Part shown: positions 40,672-60,714 of the stretch, one piece after another
Numbering within the stretch: the first letter of the stretch is position 1
How the letters are laid out: every line of letters begins with the position of its first letter
DNA from: Dictyostelium discoideum
Taxonomy: Eukaryota
Assembly (NCBI GenBank): GCA_000004695.1
Contig: CM000154.2
Coordinates: 2,560,001-2,624,000, forward strand
DNA length: 64,000 nt
Direction of reading: 5' to 3'
The notes under the pieces: generated by a model
What the model was told of the DNA's origin: nothing
Databases searched by the model: none
The model's input: only the letters and a program-made list of their open reading frames with translations
Position numbers and translations under genes: made by a program

Positions 40672-43600
40672 ATGATTAATAACGAGTACAATGAAAAAAA
40701 TGAAAACCTTTTTTGGAAGGTATTTCATAATAAATATATTTTCAAAAATATAATTATTCAAATGGAGGAAGAAATCATTGAATATGAAGATGTCAATAAA
40801 TACTATATGGGAAATAGAATAAAATTTAAAGATATTACATCATTAGAATGGATTGTTGAAAGAATACAAAAAACAAAACAAATATTACATGATAAACTTA
40901 TTAGTGATCAAGAAATTAATATTACAATTAAATCAATTGATTTATTAATTAAAAAATTTGAAAATGAAAATAAAAAAGAAAATGAAAATAATAATAATAA
41001 TAATAATAATAATAATAATAATAATAATAATAATAATAATAATAATAATAATAATAATAATAATAATAATAATAATAATAATCATAATAATAATAATAAT
41101 AATAATAATAATAAATTTAATGATATAAATATAATAGAGTTATTATTTAAAAAAAGAGAAAAAGAAATTATTCATTTAATAGATCCAGTTTATTTTTCAA
41201 TTAAATATAATAAACCTAAACTATTAAAATTATTTTTAAATGAATTCAAATATCCAATTTTACCATCAACTTTTGAATTTTCATTTAAAAATTCAAATCT
41301 TGAAATCATAAAAATTATATTAAATGAAAAAATAACAACTCTTAATAATGATTTAAAATCAGTAATATTAAAATCAATTTTTTTAAATCCTAATAGTTCA
41401 ACTATAATACCTTTTATTTTAAATGATTTAATTTTTTTTAAATTTCAAAATAATAATAATAATAATAATAATAATAATAATAATAATAATAATAATAATA
41501 ATAATAATAATAATAATAATAATAATAATAATAATAATAATAATAATAATAATAATAAAAATAAAAAAAATAATAATAATAAAAATAATAATAATAATTC
41601 AAAAATTAAAGAAATTAAATTAATTAAAATTAAATTTAATGATTTATTTAAAATTGAATCAATAGAATTAAAATATAAAATGTTAAATAATAATTTAGTT
41701 GAAATACCAGATGAACAATCAATACTTGATGATAATGAAATATTAAAAGTTTTTAAAAATAATGATAGAGAAGGTTTAATATTTTATTTAAGTGTAATTT
41801 ATAAATTATGTCATACAAAATTAATGTTTACAGCTAAATCAATTGAAAAACAGCAAGATGAATTGAATGAATTATCAACTCAACAATTAATGAAATTATT
41901 ATTAATTGAAACAAAATCTGAATTATTATATTTCAATTATTTATTAGAGTATGATGATTTAATTGATGGTGTGGTTGATAGTGATTTAATAGTTTATCAA
42001 TATACTATAACGGTATTTAGTGTTAAAGGATTACAATACCTCTTGAAAAAGTATAACAATATTCATAGTAATTTCTTTAAAGATTCACCAAGAAGATCAT
42101 TTACAGATTATAAAAATTCAAGTGAATATATATTAAGAAATCAAAATAGGTTAATTGAATTTCTCAGATTTTATTACTCAAAGAAATCTTTAATCACTTC
42201 AAAATTAATTAAAGATTGGAAAAGTTTAACCGAATTTTTCATCATGAATTGTGATTTAAATATATTGACAATCATTTTCAAAGAGATTGAAAATTATCCA
42301 ATTAAATTCTTTCTTAGTACAAGTTGTAGAGAGATGAATGATTTTAAAAGACATCAATGGTATATTGATAATGTATTACGTTCAATGTTAGAAACACCAA
42401 TTCAATTTAGATACTTTAATAGAATTCTATATAAATTAAAAACCGAGCAAGATGTTGACTACATTTTAAATAATTATGATTTCTATCGGTATGAATTGGA
42501 TACTTTAACATTTTATTCATTTTTAGATCAATTAGATTTAGCAATTTATTTCGAATCGAAAGCAATTCAATTAAATCTTAAAGATTTACTATTTGATAGA
42601 AATAAAATTTATTTTCAATCTTTTATAAATTCTTTGTCAATTGGTGATTTAGAAACTTTTAAAAAAATTTCATTATTAAATTTAAAATTTAATTTTATAA
42701 ATACACCAATACCAATAACATCATCACTAATAATTGAAAGTTCAAAATTAAAAAAACAACAAGATAAAGAATTAGAACTTGAAAAACAACAAAAATTAAT
42801 TTCATCTTTTTTTAATTCATCAACATCTTATTCATTTAAAAAGGATAATTTATTTTTACCAAAATTAGAAAATTTTAAAAATGAATCAATAATTAATACA
42901 TTTTCATTTTTAACAAACGAAAATAATTATCAAATTTTATCAAATCGTGGTTTTAATGAATTAGTTTATAATTTATTTAAAAGATTTCAAACAACAACAA
43001 ATGAAATTAAAAATTTAAATTTAAATTTTAATCATGATCCATATGGTTCATTATTATTTTCAATTAATTTAATAATTAATGAAGATAATTTAATTGATTC
43101 AAATTTTATATTAAACCAATTAAATATAAATCTATTTAAAGAAGAAGGAAGAGAAGATGGTGATAGTGATGGTAATATAAAATTTAAATTTATAAAAGAT
43201 GAAGAAAATCAAAAGGACAATAGTCCAGAATACATACCACTAATTAATTATTCATTCTTTAATGATGGCGATAGTGGTGATCAAGGTGATGGTTATAGTG
43301 AAATTGAAAAAAGAGTAACAAATGGAAGATCAATTAAACAAATTTATAATTACTCTGTTGATCAAGTTTATTCATTCATTGAATTGATAATAATTAAATT
43401 TCAAAATCAATTAAAATCATTATTATCAAAGAGGATTTATTACACTTTTTTCAATCATTTATATAATTTATATTTACAAATTTATGGTTTACAATTAAAA
43501 GATATTGAAAGAATTGATAAATTATTCTTTGATAATAATATTAAAATCTTTATTGATCTTTATAAAACCGTTTATTATTTTCATACAAAGTCATTTAAAC

Positions 43601-44589
43601 TTGGTTATTATATTTTATCAAGAGTTGATTTTATTTTAGATTATGAATATTTAGAAATTCTATCAACTGGTACAACTACAAAATTTCATAGAGTTTTAAA
43701 TGAAAGTGAATTTCCATATCAATTAATTCAAACTTTAAATTATAAAAATTTATTATCAAATTTAATTAAAACAAATGAATATTTATCATTACCATTGCCA
43801 TCATCATCACCATCATTATCACCATTAGAATCACAATCATCATTTTCAAAATTAAATGATGATATTTTATTCCTTTTAATATTTGGTGAAATTGATTTAT
43901 TATTTGAATTATTTTCAATGATTAAATTAAAATTTTCAAATAATAATTTCAATAAAATTCAAGAGATCATTGATTTTAAAATAATTAATTATTGTTTTCA
44001 ATATTTAAATTTCGAAAATTGTATTAAATTGATAAAATTTAATATTTTTCCTATAAAATTAATAACAAGATTTATTTTTAAAACTGGTAAATTAAATTTA
44101 TTAGAATTTTTATTATCTGAAATTACAACAACATCAGATTATCAATCATCAAATGAATTAACAACAGCAACAACAACATCAACAACAACAACAACATTAA
44201 CAAAAAATAATTTAAATGATATAATTAATATTAATAATTTATATTATTCATTTAAATTTAATAATTTATTAATTATTAATTTTATTTTTAATAATTTTAA
44301 AAACAAATTAATTAATTATGATTTTAGTAAAATACTTTATAAATTAGTACTTAATCGTAATATTAAATTAATTGAAATTATTGTAAATTTTTGTAAAAGA
44401 TTTAAATCAAAAATACCTTTAGAAATTGCAAAAATTGATAGTTTAAAATGGTTAGAATTTTGTGATTATAAAAATTTAAATTATTTATTTAATCAAGGTA
44501 TAAATGAAAATGAAATTAAAAAATTATTAAAAAAATATAAACCAACAGATTATAATTATTTAATTCAAAATAATTATTTTAAAAATTAA
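40672..44589 (+). CDS. large low-complexity protein, paralog family member B (N-terminal NENLFWKVFHNKYIFKNII motif; poly-Asn tracts)
   Basis: 1305-aa uninterrupted ORF; paralogous to 57616-60714 (ELLYFNYLLEYDDL / NRLIEFLRFY motifs shared) and, at the N-terminal motif, to 12028-14892. Confidence 0.75.
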   Translation: MINNEYNEKNENLFWKVFHNKYIFKNIIIQMEEEIIEYEDVNKYYMGNRIKFKDITSLEWIVERIQKTKQILHDKLISDQEINITIKSIDLLIKKFENENKKENENNNNNNNNNNNNNNNNNNNNNNNNNNNNNNNNHNNNNNNNNNKFNDINIIELLFKKREKEIIHLIDPVYFSIKYNKPKLLKLFLNEFKYPILPSTFEFSFKNSNLEIIKIILNEKITTLNNDLKSVILKSIFLNPNSSTIIPFILNDLIFFKFQNNNNNNNNNNNNNNNNNNNNNNNNNNNNNNNNNNNNKNKKNNNNKNNNNNSKIKEIKLIKIKFNDLFKIESIELKYKMLNNNLVEIPDEQSILDDNEILKVFKNNDREGLIFYLSVIYKLCHTKLMFTAKSIEKQQDELNELSTQQLMKLLLIETKSELLYFNYLLEYDDLIDGVVDSDLIVYQYTITVFSVKGLQYLLKKYNNIHSNFFKDSPRRSFTDYKNSSEYILRNQNRLIEFLRFYYSKKSLITSKLIKDWKSLTEFFIMNCDLNILTIIFKEIENYPIKFFLSTSCREMNDFKRHQWYIDNVLRSMLETPIQFRYFNRILYKLKTEQDVDYILNNYDFYRYELDTLTFYSFLDQLDLAIYFESKAIQLNLKDLLFDRNKIYFQSFINSLSIGDLETFKKISLLNLKFNFINTPIPITSSLIIESSKLKKQQDKELELEKQQKLISSFFNSSTSYSFKKDNLFLPKLENFKNESIINTFSFLTNENNYQILSNRGFNELVYNLFKRFQTTTNEIKNLNLNFNHDPYGSLLFSINLIINEDNLIDSNFILNQLNINLFKEEGREDGDSDGNIKFKFIKDEENQKDNSPEYIPLINYSFFNDGDSGDQGDGYSEIEKRVTNGRSIKQIYNYSVDQVYSFIELIIIKFQNQLKSLLSKRIYYTFFNHLYNLYLQIYGLQLKDIERIDKLFFDNNIKIFIDLYKTVYYFHTKSFKLGYYILSRVDFILDYEYLEILSTGTTTKFHRVLNESEFPYQLIQTLNYKNLLSNLIKTNEYLSLPLPSSSPSLSPLESQSSFSKLNDDILFLLIFGEIDLLFELFSMIKLKFSNNNFNKIQEIIDFKIINYCFQYLNFENCIKLIKFNIFPIKLITRFIFKTGKLNLLEFLLSEITTTSDYQSSNELTTATTTSTTTTTLTKNNLNDIININNLYYSFKFNNLLIINFIFNNFKNKLINYDFSKILYKLVLNRNIKLIEIIVNFCKRFKSKIPLEIAKIDSLKWLEFCDYKNLNYLFNQGINENEIKKLLKKYKPTDYNYLIQNNYFKN

Positions 44590-60600: not shown

Positions 60601-60714
60601 AAATTTTATTCTAAATCCAATATAATCTTTGGAAATTTCATCATTATCAATATGATAAAATATCTTTTTAAATAAATAAATATTCCTAATAACTTTCCAA
60701 AATAAATTCTCCAT
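57616..60714 (-). CDS. paralog family member C, main exon (contains a 100-N gap at 59712-59811); N-terminal MENLFWKVIRNIYLFKKIF motif
   Basis: Two long ORFs joined across the gap; donor ..AATTTTTA|gtatgt at ~57615; homologous to gene B (GSELLFYDYLIEYDELLDDL, NGYRLIEFLKVSKSYNL). Confidence 0.65.
59712..59811. other. assembly gap (100 N)
   Basis: n run. Confidence 1.

Follow-up and report, generated by a model that had tools for sequence, protein, structure and literature searches.

How several very long genes and a number of gene fragments with a similar look came to lie near each other is the question raised by a 64,000-nucleotide stretch of Dictyostelium discoideum DNA (assembly GCA_000004695.1, contig CM000154.2, positions 2,560,001 to 2,624,000 of the forward strand), which was analysed as a whole and is called here the window. 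The window, with a base composition of about 20% guanine plus cytosine (GC), encodes proteins identical to cupC and to the glutamine synthetase glnA2 of D. discoideum AX4, and is thus AX4 chromosomal DNA. A first description, made from the letters of the window and referred to here as the sequence-only reading, identified three paralogous giant low-complexity genes (A, B and C) with a common N-terminal motif, together with two dead fragments of B, and related them to recurrent local duplication at the DNA level. The reading favoured by the present analysis, to which we give a probability of roughly 0.75, is that two intact, old sister genes, B and C, flank a younger, shattered copy of B, named B' in the following, as the outcome of ordinary birth-and-death evolution in a lineage-specific family. 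Gene A stands apart from this local history.

The open reading frames (ORFs) of A and B are found where the sequence-only reading had placed them (Table 1), and the span of gene C, 56735-60714 on the minus strand, appears in the raw window as three adjoining ORFs. B and C are full-length collinear paralogues. Five matches, with identities of 25-41% and E values down to 1e-9 to 1e-12, run in the same order along both proteins from the N-terminus to about residue 1100 (BLASTP and phmmer): B 11-97 with C 2-81 (E 5e-9), B 360-601 with C 276-539 (E 9e-10), B 645-676 with C 615-646, B 942-990 with C 896-946, and B 950-1148 with C 904-1099. Moreover, a hidden Markov model (HMM) of the family built without C covers residues 2-1275 of C in one stretch (HMM positions 10-920, E 5e-77), and B matches the full-length family HMM with an E value of 5e-155. 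The collinearity over more than 1 kb claimed previously is therefore well founded, as is the common motif as far as these two genes are concerned, since both open with ENLFWKV..N.Y.FK.I within their first 30 residues.

Orthologues of both genes are syntenic in D. cf. discoideum (locus L002) and in D. dimigraforme (locus L003), those of B with nucleotide identities of 91.5% and 81%, respectively. The ratio of nonsynonymous to synonymous substitution rates (dN/dS, Nei-Gojobori) is 0.37 for B and 0.24-0.32 for C, which identifies both as true genes, evolving moderately fast under purifying selection. The opposite view, that both are long chance ORFs in low-complexity, AT-rich DNA, could appeal to their high content of N, I, K and L, their poly-N tracts, the lack of any Pfam domain and the fact that the indexed AX4 proteins do not include B; it is refuted by conservation, with intact orthologues in three species evolving at dN/dS values of 0.24-0.37, and we regard its probability as negligible. 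The 53 related protein clusters and the confident AlphaFold2 models described below speak against it too, and, judging from codon composition, 1000-1300 open codons would be unexpected at about 20% GC, where stop codons are frequent. The label of low-complexity genes was also an overstatement: homopolymer runs of at least 6 residues make up 5.9% of B and 8.3% of C, and these tracts are placed as insertions between conserved blocks.

The three ORFs into which gene C is divided made it a candidate for a degraded gene, which was rejected. Five assembly gaps are present in the window, each a run of exactly 100 N, and one of them (59712-59811) falls within C. The D. discoideum assembly GCA_054883475.1 (locus L001), which is gap-free, agrees with the window at 100% over 17.3 kb to one side of this gap and at 99.95% over 4.2 kb to the other, and has 48 bp in the place of the N run. 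The frame change near 57615 corresponds to an 88-bp intron with canonical ends and is not a lesion. The gap and the intron account for the apparent breaks, and C is therefore intact; the spliced product has 1279 residues, compared with 1305 for B, and exon 2 hits the family HMM in the C-terminal portion of the model (E 2e-14). In GCA_054883475.1 the automatic model of C has 1370 residues and includes an extra third exon, taken from the tail of a cup gene at 56286-56615; this fusion is probably an artefact.

The two B-like fragments, referred to here as remnants 1 and 2, are real. In blastn, 46575-46679 matches B 40622-40727 (87.7% over 106 bp, E 5e-30), and 50882-51102 matches B 42242-42462 (88.2% over 221 bp, E 3e-76). 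Remnant 1 had been described as the promoter plus the first 25 codons of B; it does hold an upstream flank of about 50 bp, but its codons, starting at an ATG at 46624, are 19 and are followed by a stop. Remnant 2, given before as 230 bp, is present with a length of 221 bp. The first remnant abuts, head-on, a truncated YqaJ ORF on the opposite strand, and the second is flanked by no family homology on either side. No other B-like remnant was found by tblastn in the interval, and neither the full-length family HMM nor tblastn revealed further family members or fragments in the window.

The 5' flank carried by remnant 1 implies a duplication at the DNA level and not by retroposition. The features of a non-processed pseudogene are all found here, namely a flank upstream of the ATG, proximity to the parent gene and disabling lesions (the stop after codon 19 and, in the D. 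cf. discoideum copy described below, frameshifts). Furthermore, the dN/dS of remnant 2 against B is 0.87, a value close to neutral. Both remnants lie on the same strand, keep the order of B and diverge from it by about 12% each, and their spacing of 4.2 kb in AX4 corresponds to a span of 1.5 kb in B.

The comparison with the other two taxa places these remnants in time. The order in D. cf. discoideum is B, a SET-domain gene (minus strand), a DDE_Tnp_4 gene, B' and C (minus strand). B' (L002 ~9968-12557, 2.6 kb) matches the 3' 2.7 kb of B at 84.5%; it is 5'-truncated and is read in three frames because of two frameshifts, and is thus a pseudogene. Behind it, a short stretch repeats the 3' end of SET, which indicates that the duplicated unit held the downstream flank of B and that SET already adjoined B at that time. 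In D. dimigraforme, B is followed by C (minus strand) at a distance of 1.6 kb, with neither SET, B' nor filler between them, and no trace of SET was detected in this spacer. Over 2370 ungapped columns, B' differs by 9.8% from AX4 B and by 10.0% from D. cf. discoideum B, these two differ from each other by 3.1%, and the distance for D. dimigraforme B is 15.7%. Quartet sites favour the grouping of AX4 B with D. cf. discoideum B, and of B' with D. dimigraforme B, by 29:8:4, which means that B' arose before the split between AX4 and D. cf. discoideum.

In the 221-bp region, eight derived sites unite AX4 remnant 2 with D. cf. discoideum B' to the exclusion of all three B orthologues, while the two-state sites uniting it exclusively with AX4 B number 0 (one three-state site groups them). 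Remnant 2 is therefore the AX4 orthologue of B', on a branch off the B lineage, and not a copy of the present B. For remnant 1, the location is informative: it begins 32 bp beyond the end of the homology between AX4 and D. cf. discoideum on the SET side and, since B' is downstream of SET in D. cf. discoideum, occupies the place predicted for the 5' end of B'. Its position, strand, order and similar divergence make it, with moderate confidence, the probable 5' end of the same B'. Three points weigh against this assignment. Remnant 1 has no counterpart in D. cf. discoideum, where B' lacks the 5' 1.2 kb; only 3 substitutions separate its 56 coding bases from B; and the search for source copies covered the retrieved family proteins rather than the D. 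discoideum genome at the DNA level.

Two other origins have to be weighed for the remnants. The one implied by the sequence-only reading is a series of independent duplications, two or more, each of the size of a fragment, which would have carried short stretches of today's AX4 B into an adjacent 'gene graveyard'. That fragment capture occurs in this place is clear from the unrelated gene pieces (YqaJ, deoxynucleoside kinase, SNF2-like, cup tail) amid which the remnants lie 4.2 kb apart, and remnant 1 without its D. cf. discoideum orthologue would fit such a process; however, the distribution of the eight substitutions, the agreement of both remnants in strand, order and divergence, and the location of remnant 1 just past SET make piecemeal copying unlikely. 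The second origin would be a different, unsampled B-like member elsewhere in the genome, inserted ectopically. At least eight D. discoideum clusters belong to the family, the library searched merges relatives more than 50% identical and the comparison was made at the protein level, all of which leave some room for such a donor. Nevertheless, B is the best match of both remnants among all retrieved family members (84% against 68% for the next one with remnant 1, and 72% against at most 36% for members outside the B lineage with remnant 2), as the sequence-only reading had anticipated, and a syntenic B' is present in the sister taxon; an ectopic donor is thus very improbable. The fragments are best read as leftovers of a single duplicate, B'.

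Local duplication has taken place twice at this locus, once as an old inverted event (B and C) and once as a younger direct event (B and B'). The claim of recurrent local duplication at the DNA level stands for these two events and for the copied 5' flank, but not for separate piece-sized copies. In the history that we propose, the old inverted duplication behind the convergently oriented genes B and C took place before the split between D. discoideum and D. dimigraforme. Later on, in the discoideum lineage and before the separation of AX4 and D. cf. discoideum, B and its flanks would have been copied in direct orientation beyond SET, and the resulting B' would have lost its function. In D. 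cf. discoideum, it would have survived as the 5'-truncated, twice-frameshifted 2.6-kb pseudogene next to a Harbinger-type transposase gene. In AX4, only 106 bp from the 5' end of B' and an internal piece of 221 bp would have been left, with unrelated insertions (truncated YqaJ, deoxynucleoside kinase and SNF2-like pieces, and a 4.4-kb cup copy) in the place of the rest. Erosion would have occurred by deletions and foreign insertions, in an order of events that we infer from the present arrangement.

The transposase gene of D. cf. discoideum (DDE_Tnp_4, Harbinger/PIF-type, L002 7934-9249) is situated exactly where the 5' 1.2 kb of B' is missing, which suggests a transposon-associated deletion. 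With respect to known systems, B' resembles duplicated pseudogenes and birth-and-death tandem families in the copied 5' flank, the dN/dS of 0.87, the frameshifts in the sister species, and the combination of deletion and invasion; the only notable point with regard to ordinary duplicated pseudogenes is its fragmentation in AX4, compared with the 2.6-kb relic in the sister taxon.

Gene A, the third of the supposed paralogous giants, is an independent ankyrin-repeat gene, 26 kb from B, and not a local paralogue; it probably shares with the family a remote N-terminal module of about 55 residues. In Pfam it matches Ank_4 (E 1.6e-11, 44.5 bits, with a cut-off of 22.7) and also Ank_2, and the full-length family HMM gives no match on it at E <= 1. 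Its version of the motif, LFRKVWNSKVLREHIIGFI, is a diverged form with 7 identities out of 16 to B, so that the common motif claimed for the three genes is recognised in A by profiles only. Several results are unfavourable even to the shared module: pairwise BLASTP finds no similarity between A and B, A is not listed by a six-sequence HMM of the B and C N-termini nor by an HMM of the 20-residue motif, and 19 of the 29,691 17-mers in the window score as high against B, which is near chance. In addition, a word-indexed search with A led from its N-terminus to one unrelated ankyrin protein and from its C-terminus to none. All this would be expected if the likeness were due to chance or to composition in an AT-rich proteome, A being unrelated to the B/C family.

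Larger profiles, including 34 to 52 family sequences, give a different result. Against the 52-sequence N-terminal profile A reaches 14.1 bits (E 0.001), as the third-best ORF of the window after B and C, and the alignment, which takes in residues 13-66 and both conserved blocks, lies at the N-terminal position where the module belongs; the hhalign comparison with the family has a probability of 90.7% (E 1e-6). In a control comparison A scored 29.3, compared with 10.5 +/- 2.2 (maximum 19.2) for 200 composition-preserving shuffles and 6.6-11.4 for 17 other N-termini of the window, that is, about 8.5 standard deviations above the shuffles. Finally, ankyrin repeats of the Pfam type stand directly behind the module in several bona fide family members, as they do in A, which makes the link plausible. 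Similarity between the N-termini is therefore at chance level for A in pairwise comparison and above it with these profiles, and a purely fortuitous likeness seems rather doubtful. Rather than a local triplet, the motif appears to characterise a broader superfamily of the ankyrin type.

The size of the family to which B and C belong, an issue raised by the sequence-only reading, was established by searching 1.84 billion representative proteins, clustered at 50% identity, with a 207-position profile of the B/C N-terminal region. The search gave 53 clusters at E <= 1e-3, 29 of them at E <= 1e-10; nearly all have 950-1400 residues, with the matching region located at the N-terminal end of the protein. 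D. discoideum accounts for no fewer than eight separate clusters, and AX4 DDB_G0267878 (Q55G02) is among the proteins named. The 20 named representatives whose source was looked up all belong to D. discoideum, D. cf. discoideum, D. dimigraforme, D. firmibasis, D. purpureum or Tieghemostelium lacteum, and within this sample the family appears to be restricted to Dictyostelia. Two D. purpureum members are located two genes apart on the same contig, so that local clustering recurs in the family. A word-indexed search with B, a method nearly blind to this family, returned 2 matches only.

As regards function, 19 of the 20 representatives are labelled hypothetical or uncharacterised throughout, and that of T. 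lacteum is also named 'Ankyrin repeat-containing protein' in UniRef. DDB_G0267878, D. purpureum DICPUDRAFT_76800 and T. lacteum DLAC_10447 resemble B and C in the N-terminal module, the length of about 950-1400 residues and the collinear blocks. Over their full length, other family proteins are 16-27% identical to B, with the sole higher value (75%) for its D. dimigraforme orthologue P0001. DDB_G0267878 and the other relatives have no described function, and membership hence provides no functional label; nothing specific to the motif or the family was found in the literature.

The N-terminal consensus of 52 sequences is E-x-LFWKVF-x-N-K-[YF]-L-x3-IF ... NR-x-KFK-x-I-x-SL-x-WM ... KQ-x-x-LLK-x-KL. 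Residues 11-30 of B and 2-21 of C agree with the pattern E-x-LFWKVF-x-N-x-[YF]-[LI]-x3-I, located within the first ~30-70 residues of family members. Both proteins also show the architecture of the full-length profile, made up of an N-terminal module of about 200 residues, central blocks, a 'YL.IKS.KL' block and C-terminal repeats. Pfam assigns no domain to B and C, nor any Ank match above the curated cut-off, and its Ank models are found at E < 0.01 in 3 of 33 family members. Positions ~800-900 of the family profile, nevertheless, match designed ankyrin proteins, DARPins, ankyrin-1 and FEM1B in the PDB (best E 1.5e-6); the corresponding stretch, approximately B 1130-1250 and C 1085-1260, displays units resembling A-x-x-G-x-L-x-i-v-x-f-L.

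The AlphaFold2 model of C residues 1-164 has a confidence (predicted local distance difference test, pLDDT) of 85, with values over 94 for residues 40-130; in it the motif folds into two helices (2-10 and 12-24), behind which come three or four helix hairpins. Foldseek retrieved nothing significant from the PDB with this N-terminal model, and the two-helix motif has no match among Pfam or PDB sequences. Compared with ankyrin-repeat proteins (Pfam clan Ank; ankyrin-1, FEM1B, the ankyrin-repeat domain (ARD) of TONSL, DARPins), B and C differ in having no Pfam Ank match, in consisting mostly of a divergent solenoid without confident assignment, and in their family-specific two-helix motif. The family may thus be regarded as one of all-alpha scaffolds, of a cryptic ankyrin or alpha-solenoid type, that carry an N-terminal cap specific to them; along the chain, the two-helix motif would be succeeded by ankyrin-like hairpins, then a long solenoid of helices and, towards the C-terminus, cryptic ankyrin repeats. 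The predicted fold suggests that its members most likely act as scaffolds for protein-protein interaction.

A more specific role may be conceived by analogy with proteins combining an F-box and ankyrin repeats, such as Legionella AnkB. The F-boxes of Dictyostelium have been reported to be very divergent, and divergent candidates have been listed (PMC9485057). In the same way, the LFWKVF two-helix module could be an adaptor peculiar to dictyostelids, such as a cryptic element that binds Skp1 or cullins and is comparable to the F-box, and the family would then be a set of substrate receptors; this is a speculation, which we hold to be improbable. The motif as a divergent F-box proper (PF00646 / PF12937), which is a Skp1-binding motif of three helices and ~45 residues, was considered and found no support at the sequence level: five N-termini gave no Pfam match even at E <= 10. 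The N-terminal profile found no F-box protein in the PDB. If the adaptor idea were true, this family of ankyrin-like solenoids, fast-evolving and prone to local duplication, with at least 50 clusters, together with conventional ankyrin proteins like A, would represent lineage-specific substrate receptors, and its birth-and-death turnover would mirror an arms race, e.g. with bacteria or cheater strains.

Table 1. Genes, gene parts and remnants in the window (positions counted from its first letter)
Feature	Position	Strand	Description
Gene A	12028..14892	-	954-residue ORF, ankyrin-repeat protein; not a full-length family member
A, N-terminal module, residues 13-66	14695..14856	-	Putative divergent copy: motif helices and first hairpin
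Gene B	40672..44589	+	Intact single-exon ORF, 1305 residues; 'LFWKVF' ankyrin-like helical-repeat family
B, N-terminal motif, residues 11-30	40702..40761	+	ENLFWKVFHNKYIFKNIIIQ; conserved, in frame, in D. cf. discoideum and D. dimigraforme B
SET-domain gene	44715..46297	-	Pfam SET; 90.6% nucleotide identity to L002 5153-7055; between B and the remnants
B' remnant 1	46575..46680	+	About 50 bp of 5' flank and codons 1-19 (MINNEYNEKKENLFWMVFQ), then stop
AX4-specific filler between remnants	46681..50881	.	4.2 kb; truncated YqaJ, deoxynucleoside-kinase piece, DUF5792-like ORF, others
B' remnant 2	50882..51102	+	Equivalent to B codons 524-597; open frame, 74 codons
cup block	52222..56644	-	Complete cupC and last ~360 bp of the preceding cup gene; site of the B' 3' part in D. 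cf. discoideum
Gene C, exon 2	56735..57527	-	Stop codon 56735-56737; cryptic ankyrin-like repeats
Gene C, intron	57528..57615	-	88 bp; GTATGT...ATAG; splicing restores a single frame
Gene C, exon 1	57616..60714	-	Spans gap 59712-59811; one open frame of 1015 codons once gap-filled
C, N-terminal motif, residues 2-21	60652..60711	-	ENLFWKVIRNIYLFKKIFYH

The DNA surrounding the remnants shows a composition of its own. The filler between them has no match in L002 or L003, and the DNA between remnant 2 and C is likewise absent from D. cf. discoideum and D. dimigraforme. In the AX4 interval 46597-52199 the GC content is 28-31%, compared with about 20% in the neighbouring sequence, and its pieces are partial with respect to Pfam models (YqaJ recombinase 1-114 of 150, deoxynucleoside kinase 80-165 of 203), together with a SNF2-like piece of 69 residues and the DUF5792-like ORF; they may stem from segmental capture or be the cargo of a virus or transposon. 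The cup block, 4.4 kb long, is a segmental duplicate: the original, which belongs to an array of tandem cup genes (L005 7910-12550), lies 730 kb away on the same chromosome and is 92-93% identical. The block contains an internal repeat (52444-52808 / 56280-56644).

Other observations concern the rest of the window. Two direct repeats of 1.38 kb each (34401-35779 and 35882-37260) are 99.6% identical and separated only by the gap 35780-35879. They code for a protein of 444 residues, without any Pfam match, of which many near-identical AX4 copies exist (DDB_G0277285, DDB_G0293690 and others); they are probably a multicopy or mobile element, and their tandem state may be an assembly artefact. Adjoining gene C, a long FNIP-repeat ORF (61152-62700, minus strand) is closely preceded by a stop codon in its frame, and the new assembly joins it to an upstream ORF, to which it is unrelated, in a model of 926 residues; it is either a pseudogene or a gene with an intron not recognised, and the LFWKVF motif, when sought in it, was not seen. 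Shorter direct repeats, with 86% identity, are located at 15970-16149 / 22047-22228 and at 25690-25796 / 26027-26134.

With respect to annotation, an exact look-up found neither B (1305 residues) nor A (954 residues) in the indexed protein collection, which holds AX4 cupC and glnA2; in the gene-position index, B is recorded solely for GCA_054883475.1, as a 1305-residue gene, and A has no record. Either the collection has no AX4 reference model matching these sequences exactly, or there are omissions in the indexes. The B orthologue models begin at the internal Met31, and the 30 motif-bearing codons are in frame just upstream (L002 ~1070-1160, L003 ~9910-10000). The D. cf. discoideum and D. dimigraforme models are thus probably truncated at the 5' end, without the motif.

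The main value of these results lies in annotation and evolutionary bookkeeping; the current understanding is not challenged and the mechanism is not surprising. Gene C of the AX4 reference is shown to be intact, and the locus provides a three-species series of the decay of a duplicate, with B' absent in D. dimigraforme, present as a 2.6-kb pseudogene in D. cf. discoideum and reduced to two relics in AX4. Moreover, a description can now be given of an unnamed dictyostelid family of about 50 clusters, whose members appear to be solenoids of a cryptic ankyrin type, capped at the N-terminus by a motif of their own.

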